Below are positions 13,801 to 55,769 of a stretch of DNA of 64,000 nt, piece after piece; within the stretch, counting starts at the first letter, position 1, and every line of letters starts with the position of its first letter. Both the position numbers and the translations under genes were made by a program. The notes under the pieces were generated by a model. It was not told the DNA's origin and ran no database searches. It worked only from the letters and a program-made list of their open reading frames with translations. The stretch covers positions 6,064-70,063 of the forward strand of contig JAFSHF010000031.1 of NCBI GenBank assembly GCA_017440465.1. The letters run 5' to 3'. This DNA comes from Clostridia bacterium. Lineage in GTDB: Bacteria; Bacillota; Clostridia; Oscillospirales; QAKW01.

Positions 13801-15140
13801 CCAATGTGGAAGGAGCGGAAACGGTCTATGTGAAATATAACGATTTAAGCCCCATTAGCTTTGAGATCACCGTCGTTCCGGTGGTGGTTGAGAAGATCGA
13901 GATTACTACCGAACCTGAGCGTAGCTATATTGAAGGGCAGCCTTTGAATGTGGCAGGCGGGATGATCCTCATCACCTATAATAATGAGGATACCGAGCCG
14001 CTGGCGATGGATGCCGCGGGGGTCACCCTTTCGGGCTATGATCCCAATAAGATCGGGGAGCAGACCGTCACCGTTACCTACGGCGGAAAAACCGCTACCT
14101 TTACCGTCAACGTTCGCGCCAGAAAGGCAGTAAGCATCCGTATATCGACTCGACCCAAGACGGAGTACTTAGAGGGCAAGGATACTGCGCTGAATTTAGC
14201 GGGCGGAAAACTGACCGTGTATTATGATAATAATACTTCGGCAACCATCAATCTTACTGACTCGCAGGTTACAGTAAGTGGTTTTAAAGCGACGCAGATC
14301 GGGGATCAAACGATCACAGTAAGCTACCCCGGCGTTTCATCTGCGACCTTTACTATTACGATGAATAAAAAAGCGGTGGAATCCATCGCCATCGCCGCGA
14401 TGCCGACCAAGATGATGTATCGGCAGGGCGTCGAAAAATTTGATCCCGCCGGCGGGTTGATTACGGTTTTTTATAATAACGATACCAAAGAGACCGTCCA
14501 TCTTTCCAAAGCAACCGTCAGCGGATTTTCCAATCTCTTTGCAGGGGATGTCACCGTCACCGCAGTCTATCAAGGCTCTGCGGTGGAGTTTAAGGTGCTG
14601 ATCCTTGCGGAAAATCCCTTTAAAGACGTCAAGGCGAACGAATATTATGAGACGCCGGTTCTTTGGGCGGTGACCAAGGAGATCACCAAAGGAACGGCAG
14701 AGGATACCTTCAGCCCCAACGATGAATGTACCCGCGGCCAGATCGTCACTTTCCTCTGGCGTGCCGCCGGGGAGCCCGCGACCGAAACCGCCAAAAATCC
14801 GTTTAAGGATGTCAAAAAAGGCGAATATCATTATAATGCCGTTCTTTGGGCGGTGGAAAACGGCATCACCAACGGGATGGATGCCACCCACTTTGCTCCC
14901 GATGCCTCTTGTACCCGCGGGCAGGTCGTCACCTTCCTTTGGCGGGCGGCAGGAGAGCCTGCGCCCGAAACCGCCAAAAATCCGTTTAAGGATATCAAAA
15001 AGAGCGAATATTATTATAACGCCGTTCTTTGGACGGTGGAAAACGGCATCACCAACGGAATGACCGACACGACCTTTGCGCCGAATTCAACCTGTACGCG
15101 CGGACATATAGTCACCTTCCTCTACCGCACCTATGACTAA
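10812..15140 (+). CDS. Giant surface protein: N-terminal cohesin-like domain, about 13 bacterial Ig-like repeats, three C-terminal SLH-like repeats
   Basis: Signal peptide MKRIISAVLIL; cohesin-like GETVTVTVAFENIPACGAVDFNLVYD; ~80-aa repeats (KTEYxxGxxLxLxGGxLxVxY..GxQxVTVxY); three near-identical NPFKDVK..WAVENGITNG..CTRGQVVTFLWRAAGEP units. Confidence 0.85.
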   Translation: MKRIISAVLILIMLIPPMVLPAEAATLVQADSAVRITADKAVAAVGETVTVTVAFENIPACGAVDFNLVYDTEYLQAPAKSDVSMNIGGTVKDRNPAYSIDEKTSEEYAGRQAVKVVAAGDSNCLKGSSGTLFTVKFVVANEAPAPGIPLAFFGTFSDLYSNRDLRNTIQVFNTHIATADPTKEVTAVALKQAPTKTEYVQGQALNLEGGRLLVNYDDSSSQEVYLSLAQITQYDFTKLGTQTVKAEYAGKEVSFEIQTEASVLSSISVGQVPATVEYIQGKTAQLDRSEGVLLLHYTGGIVKTLEMSDAEVTLSGYDKDQLGVQKIKVQYGGFETEYKIAVVKKAISDIDVRTPMVCDACGSEWSAFDLIQAADASADPYSMDFNERLTYIKNTANNVTCPSDTCAGATFSTKMKMVYFVGEDFDVGNAKLFVTYSGGTTEEIDMTLDMVEFKNTFATTQNVEVAYGAQWMLIKNVQTRKKEATAITVTRKPKTEYVKGQSFDRTGGIIHVEYNDGSEEDLPMEHEDVRVHYSGMDELGEHRVTVFYESQQAYFYIKVIARVVKSIAVDPEATSTYVRGREPDPDTKLLVTYNDDETETAYLRNATVEGYNSEQIGLQVLTITYGGVNCNWPVTVEEKVVTALEVVGTLPTTVLEETELNLEGCTLTATYNEGKLVEENIAITPDRIKNFDKSQCGLQTVTIEFGEGTVTFEITVLEKSLTSIEVEGVKEQYLLMDALDRSVGKIKLIYNNGTVDYIDFSDENISVEGFQSDVAGEQLVTVEYQGFTDTYPVTVYIEILSISVTPPKKTAYIEGEPLDLTEGFLHITQPNGTINIPLSEGMVSGYEADRIGEQTLTIEVGEHTADFKVTVREKQLTGITVSPETIDHNEWEELDFSQVVVTAWYDNNTSKTVTEEASKAAYDTYVIYTYEGKTATLNVNVIKRAPIFIEWAEEPQKRTYFAGEPLLKDGTIRVHYNDQSNEQLPLTDENVSIIGDTNVEGAETVYVKYNDLSPISFEITVVPVVVEKIEITTEPERSYIEGQPLNVAGGMILITYNNEDTEPLAMDAAGVTLSGYDPNKIGEQTVTVTYGGKTATFTVNVRARKAVSIRISTRPKTEYLEGKDTALNLAGGKLTVYYDNNTSATINLTDSQVTVSGFKATQIGDQTITVSYPGVSSATFTITMNKKAVESIAIAAMPTKMMYRQGVEKFDPAGGLITVFYNNDTKETVHLSKATVSGFSNLFAGDVTVTAVYQGSAVEFKVLILAENPFKDVKANEYYETPVLWAVTKEITKGTAEDTFSPNDECTRGQIVTFLWRAAGEPATETAKNPFKDVKKGEYHYNAVLWAVENGITNGMDATHFAPDASCTRGQVVTFLWRAAGEPAPETAKNPFKDIKKSEYYYNAVLWTVENGITNGMTDTTFAPNSTCTRGHIVTFLYRTYD

Positions 15141-15301
15141 ACCGTTGAAATGGGCGCATCTTCCGATTTTTTGCCCCTCGGCATATCATTATATAGCCGA
15201 GGGATCAAAGAAATCGAAACCTGCATCCCATTTGAACGGTTTCGACCGAGAGCAAAAATGAAATAAAAAATCGACCTTGAATTTCAAGGTCGATTCTTTT
15301 T
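15141..15301 (+). repeat. Module X copy 1: conserved leader, two hairpins and a terminator (candidate small RNA / 3'UTR element)
   Basis: Starts at the stop codon of the 10812 gene. Hairpin 1 is 15175-15203 (CCCTCGGC/GCCGAGGG, loop ATATCATTATATA). Hairpin 2 is 15214-15245. Terminator is 15271-15301. Confidence 0.6.
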
Positions 15302-16262
15302 GTAGGGAACAGGTTTTCCATCCCGCTATGATCCGTACCAAATGAATTGGTACGAAACAATCCAAACGATTTGGGTGTACCAAATGAATTGGTACGGAAG
15401 CATACAAATGATTTGTATATGCACAATTGAATTGTGGATCGAAACACAAATGATTTGGGGTACCAAATGATTTGTTAGGCACAGATATTTAATTAATTTG
15501 TAGGGGACGATTGTCTTCATCGTTCCGCTTTTGCCGTACCAAATGAATTGGTACGAAAGCATACAAATGATTTGTATGTGCACAATTGAATTGTGGATCG
15601 AAACACAAATGATTTGGGGTACCAAATGATTTGTTAGGCACAGATATTTAATTAATTTGTAGGGGAAGATTGTCTTCATCGTCCCGCTTTTGTCGTACCA
15701 AATGAATTGGTACGAAACAATCCAAACGATTTGGGTGTACCATATGAATTGGTACGAAAGCATACAAATGATTTGTATGTGCACAATTGAATTGTGCACG
15801 ATCCCTTTGCAACATCAAAAAATTCATCGCAAGCCGTTGTTTGCTCGATATTTTTTGTGTTGCGGCAGCTGCTAACCTGCTCCCTTCATCGTCCCGTTTG
15901 CAACATCAAAATATTCATCGCGCGGTGCGCTCGATATCTTTTGTGTTGCGGCACCTGCTAACCTGCTCCCTTCATCGTCCCGTTTGCAACATCAAAATAT
16001 TCATCGCGCGGTGCGCTCGATATCTTTTGTGTTGCGGCACCTGCTAACCTGCTCCCTTCATCTGCCACTGGCAGCGGTCGCAGTCGCAACCACAGGCAGC
16101 GGTCACAGTCGCAACCAAATGAATTGGCACGAAAAACACAAAAGATTTGTGTTTCATACCCCAAATGAATTGGGGGTACCAAATGATTTGGTAGGTGACC
16201 GCCCAAACGAATTGTGGACAAAAAAAAGAAGTGTGCATCGAAACACAAATGATTTGGGGGTT
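15302..16262. repeat. CAAWTGAWTTG palindrome mosaic, locus 1 (about 23 cores, in 159-198 bp higher-order units opened by GTAG hairpins)
   Basis: Examples: GTACCAAATGAATTGGTAC at 15335-53, 15377-95 and 15536-54; also CATACAAATGATTTGTATG, GCACAATTGAATTGTGC and CCCCAAATGAATTGGGG. GTAG hairpins at 15302, 15500 and 15659. Confidence 0.85.
15806..16062. repeat. Tandem repeat, 3 units of 91/86/~80 bp, embedded in locus 1
   Basis: Units start at 15806, 15897 and 15983. Units 2 and 3 are identical where both are present. Each unit can form a long hairpin GCAACATCAAAA...TTTTGTGTTGC. Confidence 0.85.
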
Positions 16263-16338
16263 AGTGACATTTTTCGCCATTGCTTTTTGGCAAAAGATTT
16301 GATATGATTATAGTATCAAGAGAAAGGAATTTTAGAGA

Positions 16339-24485: not shown

Positions 24486-24955
24486 CTATAAAACTCGAAT
24501 GATTTTTTTGTGCTGTTTTATAGCGTAATCAAGGGCGATTTTGGTGCCGCTTTTGCGGGTGGTTGGGGTGCGCTGTTCATTGTAATAGACGATGCAAAAA
24601 TGGCTATGATCGATCATTTCATAATTGCGCTCGACATAAGATGCTTTTCCTGCGTTCAGTATCTTTTCGGGATAATAGGTGTCTTCATAAGTTTCAAGTA
24701 AGTAGTTTTTATAGTGCTCGCTTATATAAGGATATTCCGCTCGCACATAAACGCGCTTTATGTGTGGGTGTTTTTCTTTTATCTCAGACACGATTTCAAG
24801 GCACAAATTATTAAACCGGCTCTTACTTCCGAAAAGGAACGTATCAACTTTTCGTCTACGATCAGTTTTTCGATGACTTCAAAAAGGCACACTTTTAGTT
24901 CTGCGGTTTCGTTTATCGTTCTATGTCCAAAAAAGCAACATATATTGTTCTTCAT
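24486..24955 (-). pseudogene. SLOG/DUF1273-like protein gene interrupted by a single frameshift
   Basis: ATG at 24955 reads MKNNICCFFGHRTINETAELKVCLFEVIEKLIVDEK. The homology (VDTFLFGSKSRFNNLCLEIV...) then continues in another frame that joins track ORF 24486..24806. The switch lies at an A4 run near 24848-24853. Confidence 0.6.
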
Positions 24956-25061
24956 AGCACACCTCTTAAAAATAATAGATATACCATATATCCATTTTAA
25001 ACATTATAACACATAAAACATCTAAAATGAATATACAATATATTTATTATGAGGTGTATTT

Positions 25062-25262
25062 ATGGCAATCAAGAGTGTTTCAATAAGAATTGAAGAAGAA
25101 ATGTTGAATAAAATCGCACACATTGCTGAGTACGAAGGCAGAAGTGTAAACAGCCAAGTTCTTGTTTTAATAAGAGAAAATATTAAGGCTTTTGAAGATG
25201 CGAATGGTGCTATTGACGGCAACATTTCTCCGGCTTCAAATGTCAAACCGACTCGTAAGTAA
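25062..25262 (+). CDS. Ribbon-helix-helix (Arc/CopG-like) DNA-binding protein
   Basis: N-terminal beta-strand/helix pattern KSVSIRIEEEMLNKIAHIAEYEGRSVNSQVLVLI; followed by an intrinsic terminator. Confidence 0.55.
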   Translation: MAIKSVSIRIEEEMLNKIAHIAEYEGRSVNSQVLVLIRENIKAFEDANGAIDGNISPASNVKPTRK

Positions 25263-25265
25263 AAA

Positions 25266-25298
25266 AACACTCTGCTGAGTTTCAGCAGAGTGTTTTTT
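25266..25298 (+). terminator. Intrinsic terminator after the RHH gene
   Basis: CACTCTGCTG/CAGCAGAGTG stem plus T6. Confidence 0.8.
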
Positions 25299-25323
25299 GA
25301 TTGCAGAATTGGAGGGTTTCTTT

Positions 25324-25537
25324 GTAGGGGACGGGTTTCCCGTCCCGCTATGACCCGCAACCAAATGAATTGGTAGGGGTAACAAATGAATTGGTGGGGG
25401 GGTAACAAATGATTTGGTAGGGGGACATACAAATGATTTGTAGGCTTGCACAAATGATTTGTGCAAAGAACGTAGCAAATGAATTGGTACAGTAATGCAC
25501 AAATGAATTGTGCAACAGACCCCAAATCATTTGGGGT
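25324..25537. repeat. CAAWTGAWTTG palindrome array, locus 2 (8 cores, opened by a GTAG hairpin)
   Basis: GTAGGGGACGGGTTTCCCGTCCC at 25324, then 8 cores, ending with the inverted CCCCAAATCATTTGGGG next to the TTGACA -35. Confidence 0.85.
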
Positions 25538-25539
25538 AA

Positions 25540-25568
25540 TTGACATTTTTTTAGAAAAAGGCTATACT
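25540..25568 (+). promoter_or_regulatory. Promoter TTGACA-17-TATACT at the right end of locus 2
   Basis: Consensus hexamers with counted spacing. A homologous junction GGGGTTAGTGACATTTTT occurs at 16256-16275, at the end of locus 1. Confidence 0.55.
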
Positions 25569-25597
25569 GATGGCAGTAAATATGAAGGAGAATTCTT

Positions 25598-25771
25598 ATG
25601 CATAAGGTTATTAAAATTCTGCTTTGGGTGTTTGTGCCCATCTTTTTGGTGTTGTTTACATCCTCTGCGTTTATAGAATCTCAGGCGGTGCGGATCGCGG
25701 AATACATTGTGGATGCCATTTTGCTGGTATTGATCGGCATCGAATTGTTTTCATCCAAAAAGGAAAAATAA
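25598..25771 (+). CDS. 57-aa predicted two-TM membrane peptide (below the ORF-track size cut-off)
   Basis: Read by hand: MHKVIKILLWVFVPIFLVLFTSSAFIESQAVRIAEYIVDAILLVLIGIELFSSKKEK; SD GAAGGAG 7 nt upstream; TTGACA-17-TATACT promoter; terminator follows. Confidence 0.35.
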   Translation: MHKVIKILLWVFVPIFLVLFTSSAFIESQAVRIAEYIVDAILLVLIGIELFSSKKEK

Positions 25772-25821
25772 GAAAGGGGCTGTAAAAAAACGAATGTATT
25801 TTACAGCCCCTTTTTGTGCAG

Positions 25822-26000
25822 TTTTTGCTGTCGCAAAAGTGAAGTTGCTCGGGTTCCTTGCAGTGAAGTTTGGCTTTTCGCCAAGTGAAGTTGCTTCGCA
25901 GAGAATGAAAGGTTTGCCCTCTTCGCGAAGCGAAACTTCACTCTCCTTTTGGAGAACTTCACTTATTTATAAACTTCACTTGCCCATCGGGCAAACTTCG
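25822..26000. repeat. GTGAAGTT / AACTTCAC foldback array A
   Basis: GTGAAGTT at 25839, 25863 and 25885. AACTTCAC at 25934, 25955 and 25972, plus a degenerate AACTTCG. The motifs alternate with 4-7 bp-stem mini-hairpins. The array abuts the stop codon at 26003. Confidence 0.8.
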
Positions 26001-26002
26001 TT

Positions 26003-26563
26003 TTATGTTTGAGGGTAATAGACCACTTGAAAGAGATAATCGCCGACGCCGATCGCTTCGGCTAAGAGCATTACCAAAAAGGGAATGGCGATCATCAGCG
26101 GCAGCCAGATCCACCAATAGAATTTTTGGGGTTTTACCTGCGCTTTATACGCCATTTGCTCCTCGATGGAAAGGTCGGCGAAGATCTCGGCGCGTACCTC
26201 GCGGATCAGGGGATTGAGGCCGCGGTAGCCTTCCTTTTCCTCGGTATAGGCTTCTTTGAGTTCATGGCGAATGACAAAGAGGAACAAAACGGCTGTTGCC
26301 GCGGTCAGCGGCAGTGCCCATTGCCAATAGGCGACGCTGAAGATGCCGATATTGATCAGCAACGGCCAGACGGTATTGCCGATCAGCGCCAAGGTGCCGC
26401 GGCGCATCGACTTATTATATCGTTTGAAGATGGCTTCAAAGAGGCAATAGGCGATCAGCAATCCGCCTGCTACCGAGAGTATGTATCCTGCAGAGATCTG
26501 GTCGTACCAGGGCAGGATGGCATATTTTAGTTCCGGTGCATTGGGAAGAACAGAATTGGGCAT
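26003..26563 (-). CDS. Integral membrane protein of unknown function
   Basis: 186-aa ORF with about 4 hydrophobic segments, directly downstream of the GDPD gene. Confidence 0.6.
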   Translation of the reverse strand: MPNSVLPNAPELKYAILPWYDQISAGYILSVAGGLLIAYCLFEAIFKRYNKSMRRGTLALIGNTVWPLLINIGIFSVAYWQWALPLTAATAVLFLFVIRHELKEAYTEEKEGYRGLNPLIREVRAEIFADLSIEEQMAYKAQVKPQKFYWWIWLPLMIAIPFLVMLLAEAIGVGDYLFQVVYYPQT

Positions 26564-53912: not shown

Positions 53913-55553
53913 ATGATAACAGGTAAGCAGTATTGCGAGATGGTCATCTCCGGATGCAATCATATCAGCAACCAGAAAGCAGCCATCAATGCATTGAACG
54001 TGTTCCCGGTCCCCGATGGGGATACCGGTACCAATATGTCCCTGACCATCTCTGCCGCCGCACGCGAACTGCAGAATTTGGGGGATTGCACCATCGCCCA
54101 GGCATCGGATCGTGCCGCAGGCGCGATGCTCAAGGGCGCGCGGGGCAACAGCGGTGTTATTTTGTCCTTGCTCTTCCGTGGTATTTCCAAGGGCTTGAAG
54201 GATAAAGAGACCGCCAACGCCGCCGATTTTTCCGCAGCGTTGCATCTGGGTGTCAAAGCCGCCTATCGCGCGGTAATGAAGCCCACCGAGGGTACGGTGC
54301 TGACCGTTTCCCGCGTGGCGGCGGAAAACCTTTCCAAATATTTAGAGAATGCCCCCGAAACCACCGCCGAGCAGGCGTTGGCTTATTATGTGGAGCAGGC
54401 AAACGACGTTTTGCAGCAGACCCCCGAAATGCTGCCTCAGTTGAAGCAAGCAGGGGTGGTCGATGCGGGCGGTAAGGGCTTTGCCGTTGTGATGGAGGGT
54501 ATGCTCTCCGCACTGCGCGGTCAACCCATCGAGCCGCAGGAAGCACCCGAAGCGGTTGCTGATTCGGTGGTGGATGAACTGCCGATGCGGGAAGAGGACA
54601 TCACCTTTACCTATTGCACCGAGTATATCGTCACTGTGGATGAGACCGCCAAGAAGGATAACCCCGCCGATCTGCGCTCCTACTTGGAATCCATCGGTGA
54701 TAGCGTGGTCTGCGTACCCGATAACGAGATCATCAAGGTCCATGTCCATACCAACCACCCCGGTCGCGCCATCGAAGAAGCGCTCCGCTACGGTTCGTTG
54801 GTCAATTTGAAGATCGATAATATGAAGGAAGAGTTCCGCGCCCGCCAAAAGAGCGCACCCGCCGAACCCGAAAATGCCTTGGCAGAGCCTACCAAAAAGT
54901 ATGGCTTTGTCTCGGTCGTTGCCGGCGCCGGTCTGGCGGCGGTCTGCAAGGATCTGGGTGTCGATACCGTTGTGGAAGGCGGTCAGACCATGAACCCCTC
55001 CACCGCCGATATCCTGGCGGCGGTCAACCGCACCCCCAGCGAAGTCGTCTTCGTTCTTCCCAATAATAAAAATATCATTATGGCGGCAGAGCAGGCAAAA
55101 GAGCTCTCCACCGCAAAAGAAGTGGTGGTCATCCCCAGCAAGACCGTGCCCCAAGGCATCACCGCCATGCTTGGCTTTGATGAGACCTTGGAGACCGAGG
55201 CTCTTGCCGAAGCAATGACCGCCATGCTGGAGACTGTCAAGACCGCGCAGGTCACCTATGCCGCCCGCGACTCTGTTTTCGATGAAAAGGAGATCAAGGA
55301 AGGCCAACTGCTGGGCTTGATGGAGACCAAAGTCACCTTTGTGGAAGATCAGATGGAAGACGTTGTCCGCAAGCTCTTTGAAGAGCTGGGTAAGGACGGC
55401 GGCTCCTATATCAATGTCTACTATGGTGAGGATGTCACCGAAGAGCAGGCCGAGGCCATCACCGCGCAGATCCAAGCGCAGATGCCTCAGGCGGAGGTAA
55501 TGTGTTTGCCCGGAGGGCAACCGGTGTACCATTATATCTTTTCTGTGGAATAA
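53913..55553 (+). CDS. yloV: DAK2-domain fusion protein YloV
   Basis: N-terminal DAK2 (DGDTGTNM) plus C-terminal DegV-like region, 546 aa. Confidence 0.9.
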   Translation: MITGKQYCEMVISGCNHISNQKAAINALNVFPVPDGDTGTNMSLTISAAARELQNLGDCTIAQASDRAAGAMLKGARGNSGVILSLLFRGISKGLKDKETANAADFSAALHLGVKAAYRAVMKPTEGTVLTVSRVAAENLSKYLENAPETTAEQALAYYVEQANDVLQQTPEMLPQLKQAGVVDAGGKGFAVVMEGMLSALRGQPIEPQEAPEAVADSVVDELPMREEDITFTYCTEYIVTVDETAKKDNPADLRSYLESIGDSVVCVPDNEIIKVHVHTNHPGRAIEEALRYGSLVNLKIDNMKEEFRARQKSAPAEPENALAEPTKKYGFVSVVAGAGLAAVCKDLGVDTVVEGGQTMNPSTADILAAVNRTPSEVVFVLPNNKNIIMAAEQAKELSTAKEVVVIPSKTVPQGITAMLGFDETLETEALAEAMTAMLETVKTAQVTYAARDSVFDEKEIKEGQLLGLMETKVTFVEDQMEDVVRKLFEELGKDGGSYINVYYGEDVTEEQAEAITAQIQAQMPQAEVMCLPGGQPVYHYIFSVE

Positions 55554-55769
55554 CCGTTGAAATCGGCGCAGACCGACAGGAATAAGGAAAGAACCTGCCT
55601 TGGCAGGTTCTTTTTTATGTCTTTTCCGTTTTTTCACCTTCGGCATATCATTATATAGCCGAAGGATGAAAGAAACGAAAATCTGCATCCAATTTGAACG
55701 GTTTTAGGGAAGAGATTTAAAAAGAATGAAAAAGAACCGACCTTGAAAGGTCGGTTCTTCTATTTTTTT
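55554..55769 (+). repeat. Module X copy 2
   Basis: Starts at the stop codon of yloV with the same CCGTTGAAATSGGCGCA leader. Hairpin 1 is 55637-55665 (CCTTCGGC/GCCGAAGG, identical loop). Hairpin 2 is 55676-55707. Terminator is 55734-55769. Confidence 0.6.
55591..55616 (+). terminator. Intrinsic terminator of yloV
   Basis: GAACCTGCC/GGCAGGTTC stem plus T6. Confidence 0.8.

Follow-up and report, generated by a model that had tools for sequence, protein, structure and literature searches.

Palindrome arrays ahead of a native membrane-peptide promoter as putative operators of a small SinR-like XRE family in uncultured Clostridia

The individual parts of the system described here are known: XRE autoregulators with palindromic operators, the SinR-like protein architecture, and mosaic repeat clusters of the REP/BIME type. 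What appears to differ, judging from the sequences compared below, is that the putative operator of a small regulator family has been multiplied into many variable chromosomal arrays, where it is mixed with GTAG REPs. Repeat arrays that are bound by the product of an adjacent gene are familiar from the plasmid centromeres parC (R1) and sopC (F), where 10-12 repeats, with periods of about 43 bp and an inverted repeat in each unit, lie upstream of the binding protein's gene and overlap its promoter region, a layout that the arrays here resemble. The arrays reported here are unlike these centromeres in lying in a chromosomal housekeeping context (cysS, CCA-adding enzyme, rsmI), in occurring many times per genome and in lacking a ParA or ParM partner. 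In length (about 100-110 aa), in its N-terminal XRE helix-turn-helix and, going by the predicted structure, in a two-helix C-terminal tail, which serves multimerisation in SinR, the XRE protein of this study resembles SinR of Bacillus subtilis (PDB 1B0N, 3ZKC). The short sites that SinR binds come in groups ahead of its target promoters, much like the arrays here. However, the two proteins are only some 25-30% identical in sequence, and where SinR reads GTTCTYT, the putative site here is a palindrome of 15-17 bp with a CAAWTNAWTTG core. The arrays reach up to 22 copies and are scattered genome-wide, and nothing resembling SinI was identified as a partner.

In sequence and in fold, the XRE DNA-binding domain is matched best by controller (C) proteins of restriction-modification systems (C.AhdI, C.BclI, C.PvuII). 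These are small autoregulators with palindromic operators just upstream of their own -35 box, and occupancy of the distal site activates transcription (PMC2275141, PMC2175313). Unlike in those systems, no restriction-modification genes lie nearby here, and where C-box operators consist of two sites the arrays consist of many, also at many unrelated loci. The REP/BIME clusters of E. coli and the GTAG-tagged REPs mobilised by RAYT transposases (PMC2817692, PMC3733652) share with the arrays the layout of extragenic, mosaic clusters of short palindromes downstream of genes, as well as GTAG-tagged GC-rich hairpins and inverted doublets. In contrast to REP/BIME clusters, the dominant unit here is AT-rich and carries no GTAG tag, and unlike RAYT-linked REPs the units track an XRE regulator family, with no RAYT in this genome or in its relative G024.

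The window, i.e., the whole stretch of DNA analysed, comprises 64,000 nucleotides (C24:6064-70063) of a 1.17-Mb metagenome-assembled genome (MAG) that is 65% complete. It contains 49 matches to the core motif against an expectation of 0.84, a number that none of 100 shuffles reached. At the second of its arrays, locus 2, an earlier note had described a GTAG hairpin followed by eight cores, the last of them the only inverted one and 3 nt away from a TTGACA-17-TATACT promoter ahead of a 57-aa membrane peptide ORF. This description proved accurate in each of its parts: eight CAAATSAWTTG palindromes were mapped, only the core at 25523 has a C centre on the plus strand, the last palindrome ends at 25536 while the -35 box begins at 25540, and an RBS, a two-helix ORF and a terminator all follow (Table 1).

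The promoter matches 11 of the 12 consensus positions, and the transcription start predicted from its sequence lies near 25575. The centre of the promoter-proximal palindrome, at 25528, is 12 nt ahead of the first -35 base and at about -47 from the predicted start. The seven units with a G centre follow each other at 21-25 bp from centre to centre, with mixed arm types (AACC, TAAC, ATAC, TGCAC). Upstream, the terminator of the RHH (Arc-like) gene forms the boundary of a presumably non-transcribed spacer, which measures 240 bp from this terminator to the promoter and holds the REP-like GTAG hairpin together with the eight palindromes of 15-17 bp. The terminator hairpin is kept after RHH orthologs in L013, L014, L017 and L018. 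By the criterion of an extragenic GTAG tag with a GC-rich palindrome after it, only the hairpin at 25324-25346 is REP-like, the eight AT-rich palindromes having no GTAG. L029 and L071 carry an inverted, REPIN-like doublet of the same GTAG hairpin at the equivalent position.

Table 1. Mapped features of locus 2 and of the locus 1 junction, in window coordinates, and palindromes found ahead of the promoter in orthologous loci.
Feature	Position	Strand	Details
Intrinsic terminator of RHH (Arc-like) gene	25267..25299	+	11-12 bp stem ACACTCTGCTGA/TCAGCAGAGTGT, then T-run
GTAG-tagged GC-rich hairpin, REP-like singlet	25324..25346	+	GTAG 25324-25327; GGGACGGG-TTT-CCCGTCCC 25328-25346
Seven G-centre palindromic units	25357..25514	+	cores 25362, 25383, 25406, 25430, 25451, 25476, 25500
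Promoter-proximal palindrome CCCCAAATCATTTGGGG	25520..25536	+	core 25523, C centre at 25528
Sigma-A/sigma-70-type promoter TTGACA-17-TATACT	25540..25568	+	TTGACA 25540-25545, TATACT 25563-25568
RBS AAGGAG	25585-25590	+	7 nt ahead of ATG at 25598
57-aa membrane peptide gene	25598-25771	+	two hydrophobic helices
Intrinsic terminator of peptide gene	25776..25816	+	hairpin GGGGCTGTAAAA...TTTTACAGCCCC, then TTTTT
Last locus 1 core and string GGGGGTTAGTGACATTTTT (16256-16274)	16243..16274	+	resembles locus 2 junction, not a promoter
Likely cohesin/SLH gene promoter TTGGCA-16-TATAGT	16287..16314	+	TATAGT 16309-16314; only promoter-like site there
Palindromes ahead of promoter	L066, L067		none
Palindromes ahead of promoter	L068		1
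Palindromes ahead of promoter	L027, L029		2 each
Palindromes ahead of promoter	L071		7, plus CCCC unit identical to that of the window
Palindromes ahead of promoter	L030		about 10
Palindromes ahead of promoter	L069		at least 11

To whom the promoter belongs can be read from orthologous loci. Homologs of the 57-aa peptide form 33 clusters, with identities of 67-100%. The gene found no match among the species representatives of the genus; metagenome assemblies supplied the orthologs, and ten orthologous loci were fetched (L027-L030, L066-L071). Nine of these are syntenic with locus 2, with the peptide gene upstream of convergent 186-aa and GDPD genes and with RecG-SASP upstream wherever the fetched stretch extends there; the gene sits between RecG/SASP on one side and the 186-aa/GDPD/MFS genes on the other. 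The tenth locus, L027, has the RecG-SASP side in common with locus 2, and on its other side two co-directional genes are followed by a convergent 186-residue gene at the end of the stretch, with no GDPD or MFS gene called within the fetched stretch.

In an alignment of the window with L027, L029 and L030 (A1), TTGACA, the 17-nt spacing and TATACT are invariant while the array part diverges. The same promoter recurs in L066, L067, L068, L069 and L071, and in all eight of these loci both the promoter and the 5' UTR are kept with the peptide gene. In L028 there is one more small ORF, which has a different promoter. The number of palindromes ahead of the promoter varies widely (Table 1), and so does their placement. 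In L071 the proximal unit has the C centre and the 12-nt distance of the window, in L027 a TGCAC-type unit is centred 11 nt before the -35 box, and in L029 a decayed unit lies about 10 nt before it, so that a palindrome or its decayed remnant, with its centre 10-12 nt upstream, stands against the -35 box in the window and these three loci. The distance is not constant among orthologs, being 24-25 nt in L068 and L069 and more than 100 nt in L030. Because the promoter is conserved with the gene while the array varies, we regard the promoter as the gene's own and the array as its variable partner. By these alignments, TTGACA-17-TATACT is native to the conserved 57-aa peptide gene and was not brought by the array.

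Some features around the peptide gene vary as well. The gene overlaps or abuts a downstream gene of 172-183 aa in L027, L028, L030 and L069, the first codons of which resemble a lipoprotein signal (LMAGC lipobox) in L027 and L028. This gene is missing from the window, where a terminator and repeats are found instead. The GTGAAGTT/AACTTCAC repeats downstream of the peptide gene (25861-26003) give sub-threshold Rfam matches to Gut-1 RNA (RF01706), at 34.9 bits and an E of 5.6e-5 on the minus strand (25930-26003) and more weakly on the plus strand (25861-25916). A repeat of the GTGAAGTT/AACTTCAC type is also found directly upstream of the peptide promoter in L066.

The earlier note had seen the same junction at the end of locus 1, upstream of a gene that Pfam assigns as cohesin/SLH. 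The shared string is indeed present, as ATTTGGGG(G)T.A.TGACATTTTT at both loci (16252-16274 at locus 1), but the GTGACA of the locus 1 string GTGACATTTTT has no -10 hexamer 16-18 nt downstream, and hence the likeness of the junctions is one of partial sequence, the promoter itself having no second copy there. Upstream of the TTGGCA-16-TATAGT site, the last core is centred at a distance of 36 nt. With 28 copies, TTGACATTT is how strong promoters usually look in this genome, so that part of the resemblance between the two loci is generic. TGACATTTTT has eight copies in the genome, two of them at array ends, which may be taken as a weak hint of shared ancestry.

The neighbour named among the candidate binders of the palindromes, the product of the RHH gene at 25062-25262, has a Pfam match to Arc. 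The gene forms a two-gene module with a divergent YpsA-like gene (window 24486-25262). Within the orthologous loci this module is found in the window and L028 only, and in L027, L029, L068 and L071 SASP and the peptide gene have no such module between them. RHH orthologs with 88-98% identity in six genomes of the genus have unrelated downstream contexts, none with an array downstream. We read the pair beside the array as an insertion, and to judge from these contexts the module looks mobile.

Arrays of this kind are not confined to the window. The genome holds at least 16 of them, in which the arms beyond the 11-nt core vary yet remain self-complementary, and GTAG hairpins and inverted doublets are interspersed with the palindromes. 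Three contigs begin or end inside arrays (C3:1-1560, C7:29180-29487, C18:1-700). Because arrays break the assembly, both the number of arrays and the number of XRE paralogs in this genome are lower bounds. A search with the paired-core pattern found the motif in genomes of the same genus only, while 16 other genera of the order gave no match. Rfam searches at gathering and permissive thresholds returned no family at the array, only spurious microRNA matches, and a literature search on the core sequence only matches to 16S primers. Elsewhere in the genome, arrays end ahead of promoters unrelated to this one, by distances that vary, or they lie in convergent spacers, which contain no promoter. 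The latter account for at least 4-5 of the 16 arrays, and because there is no promoter to regulate there, regulation cannot account for all arrays; those in convergent spacers may be by-products of repeat proliferation, or titration sites. We also considered an orientation rule, in which the G centre would be on the sense strand of the upstream gene, but it fails at C8:9507 and L069.

A RAYT/Y1 transposase was considered as the driver of the arrays and rejected. The domain (PF01797) has no match in this genome, 65% complete as it is; among 30 genomes of the genus it is present in 12 and uncorrelated with arrays, and the close relative G024, which is 98% complete, has arrays but no Y1/RAYT.

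Two further repeated sequences accompany the arrays. An insert of about 115 nt (GGTTGCGACTGCGACCGCTGCC...GATGAAGGGAGCAGGTTAGCAGGTGCCGCAACACAAAAGATATCGAGCG...TTTTGATGTTGCAAACGG) occurs within arrays, always between palindrome cores, in either orientation and sometimes in tandem (window 15800-16115, G000 C8:30950-31200, C18 about 300-420, L028, L032, L033); this may be a small element with the palindrome as its target. A conserved module, AAACCGTTGAAATCGGCGCAGACCG ... CTGCATCCAATTTGAACGGTTT, starts where the gene upstream of it ends, directly at the stop codon; its terminal inverted repeats, about 20 nt long, are imperfect, and there is often a terminator inside it. It is found at 15139-15243 and 55552-55704 of the window and at no fewer than 8 other loci of the genome. 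Arrays usually start just past this module, and the C13:6866 array is flanked by it at both ends.

Some arrays stand in front of regulator genes. Two genes of a small XRE subfamily were found in this genome, C18:751-1062 (104 aa) and C18:7491-7697 (69 aa), and each is immediately preceded by a homogeneous array. The 104-aa protein has Pfam matches to HTH_3 and HTH_19, and its nearest solved sequences are 9sf2 (a transcriptional regulator, listed as phage Phi106 repressor), C.BclI, C.AhdI and SinR. An AlphaFold model (25 homologs, pLDDT 88) predicts a five-helix XRE domain followed by C-terminal helices at residues 73-82 and 87-103. The top Foldseek matches to the model are C.BclI and C.AhdI, with an rmsd of 1.2-1.3 Å over 62-65 columns, and the comparison with full-length SinR (1b0n_A) aligns 101 columns with an rmsd of 8.9. 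The 69-aa paralog is without the C-terminal tail. Their neighbours on C18 are housekeeping genes (CCA-adding enzyme, cysE, cysS, rsmI), and neither partition nor restriction genes lie near them. The family is small, about 30 clusters, annotated merely as helix-turn-helix regulators of Clostridia.

The 104-aa protein served as query against the genus, and we inspected the sequence ahead of the genes found. Such sequence was available for 23 subfamily genes (47-100% identity, 19 genomes); every one of them has between 3 and 22 CAAWTNAWTTG palindromes directly upstream, and with L030 and L070 added this holds for 25 of 25, while three more distant XRE genes, at 40% identity or less, have no upstream palindromes (0/3). 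From the last palindrome centre to the first base of the best -35 box the distance at the XRE genes is 13-17 nt in 12 of the 25 cases and 27-29 nt in another five, as compared with 12 nt at locus 2 and 11 nt in L027. Three of the XRE arrays (G017, G004, G007) have an inverted promoter-proximal unit, as at locus 2.

When the units of orthologous arrays are aligned, high information content is confined to positions from about -8 to +8 relative to the centre; the spacers are low in information and drift. The constrained footprint is 15-17 bp, and this limited constraint is as expected for a helix-turn-helix dimer. The arms at positions ±6 to ±8 are specific to the ortholog group, e.g., GCC...GGC, AAC...GTT, GTAC...GTAC or ACA...TGT. 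The positional orthologs G000_B and G044_64, which have the same downstream gene and are 64% identical, carry GTCC and GTACC arms respectively. Dispersed arrays in G005 and G020 share their arms with the arrays that front the XRE genes of the same genome. In the genome studied here the two XRE paralogs have GTCC and AACC arms in their own arrays, and most locus 2 units carry other arms, for most of which no cognate paralog turned up in this 65%-complete genome. We also compared recognition-helix residues with arm type by eye, and discarded the one candidate correspondence, of a Lys at the start of helix 3 with C at ±6, as unclean and confounded by phylogeny.

The link extends to whole genomes. 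With presence of the subfamily defined by an E of 1e-25 or lower in 30 genomes of the genus, the 19 genomes that have it all contain 13-237 cores; 9 of the 11 genomes that do not have it contain 8 or fewer, and the remaining two at least 13 (Fisher p = 3.8e-6, Mann-Whitney p = 2.4e-4). The two exceptions, G009 and G015, with many cores and no subfamily member detected, come from assemblies that are only 80% and 85% complete.

The XRE gene is not adjacent to locus 2 in the window, but it does adjoin the peptide gene in two orthologous loci. In L070 it lies 22 nt upstream of the peptide gene in a co-transcribed layout, and the array ahead of both has its last centre 15 nt from the TTGACA; in L030 it is divergent from the peptide gene, with the array between them. 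Ahead of the peptide promoter of L069 stands an XRE-A-type array whose period is 44 bp. Elsewhere, a gene with its own promoter follows the XRE gene in L034, L036, L037 and L041 (G020, G018, G006 and G005). In these four species it begins M(S/A)KKI(T/S)T(K/Q)E(M/I)T, a start that we presume to resemble that of a MATE efflux protein, and it may be a conserved neighbour or a target.

Our best explanation, to which we give a better than even chance, is that the promoter of locus 2 is native and that the palindromes are putative operators of genus-specific small XRE/Cro regulators that modulate it. The palindromes would serve as double-stranded DNA operators for small XRE/Cro-type regulators consisting of an N-terminal helix-turn-helix and a SinR-like two-helix C-terminal tail. 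Dimers of these proteins, or tetramers mediated by the tail, would occupy the palindromes, and the SinR-like tail would permit higher-order assemblies along the arrays. From the site at about -47, contact would be made with RNA polymerase at the -35/UP region, modulating initiation, and array length, which would shift fast through tandem duplication and loss, may tune the output. We infer both the direct binding of XRE proteins to the palindromes and the effect of the array on the peptide promoter. All of the sites are upstream of the -35 box, where a repressor would not classically be placed; in C-protein and lambda-type systems, sites in that position are more often activating. The earlier note had offered two roles for the repeat block. 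As a regulatory binding field it gains comparative support, with the XRE/SinR-like family in place of the RHH protein as the candidate binder, but as a promoter-delivering element it does not survive the comparison, the promoter persisting in the array-free L066 and L067 and other arrays ending at unrelated promoters or none.

The alternatives differ in what they make of the array. In the one that competes most seriously, to which we would give perhaps one chance in four, the array is a neutral or selfish cluster of the REP/BIME type that fills free spacers past terminators, and its contact with the promoter is incidental and of no regulatory consequence even if the units are bound by protein. 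The GTAG hairpins and REPIN-like doublets mixed in with the palindromes would fit such a cluster, as would the filling of convergent spacers, the range from 0 to at least 11 copies among orthologous loci in which gene and promoter persist, the variation from 12 to 36 nt in the distance between last palindrome and promoter at non-XRE genes, and the breaking of several contigs within arrays. However, Y1/RAYT was found neither in this 65%-complete genome nor in the 98%-complete, array-bearing G024, a palindrome or its remnant is found against the -35 box in 4 of 10 orthologous loci, and function is argued for by three further points: the tie between arrays and XRE genes, the fixed phasing at the promoters of these genes and a sequence constraint limited to the sites. 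That the units act as hairpins in single-stranded RNA or lagging-strand DNA, and not as duplex sites, would explain the complementary arms, which co-vary so as to preserve 7-10 bp of self-complementarity, and most units within an array do share a single orientation. We nevertheless consider this quite improbable: orientation relative to the flanking genes is inconstant (C8:9507, L069), Rfam offers no family, and arm type tracks the XRE ortholog group, as expected for the symmetric contacts of a homodimer. Moreover, the array lies between a strong terminator and a promoter, where it should be poorly transcribed, which makes a role at the DNA level more plausible than one in RNA.

The remaining two alternatives are both very hard to sustain. 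If the repeat block were an IS/MITE-like mobile element with an outward promoter, which supplied TTGACA-17-TATACT here and a copy to locus 1, the gap of just 3 nt between palindrome and -35 box and the two of eight TGACATTTTT copies at array ends would follow naturally. Yet the promoter is kept both where there is no array (L066, L067) and next to different terminal units (L027, L068, L069), the string at locus 1 has no -10 partner, and arrays elsewhere end at promoters of other kinds or at none. Binding of the palindromes by the adjacent Arc-like protein, which the earlier note had placed among its candidates, is suggested by the position of its gene next to the array and by the habit of RHH proteins of binding repeated short sites. 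It is hardly tenable given that arrays occur genome-wide and the RHH gene is a single local one, that its orthologs in six genomes have no palindromes downstream, and that an array is found at the orthologous position in L027, L029, L068 and L071 without YpsA-RHH.

If the palindromes are operators for XRE regulators, the mosaic composition of the arrays could be read further, as a combinatorial operator code. Paralogous SinR-like XREs would each read their own arms (GTCC, AACC, GTACC, CCCC, ATAC, GCAC and others), and mixed arrays would integrate several regulators at one promoter. This extension is speculative, and we think it rather unlikely. If it were true, the rapid gain and loss of units would lead to heritable tuning of surface and membrane genes, and an operator would have turned into a proliferating genomic repeat.

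The promoter of locus 2 is itself ordinary and native, and the interest of the locus lies in the link between arrays and XRE genes. The analysis provides a concrete candidate for the binder, a small SinR-like XRE family whose genes are always fronted by arrays. If the binding is true, this would be a natural case of a transcription-factor operator multiplied into dozens of variable arrays in a Gram-positive genome. It would then bear on the origin of repeat clusters of the REP/BIME type, and on regulator titration, cooperative binding and rapid promoter tuning in uncultured Clostridia of the rumen and gut.
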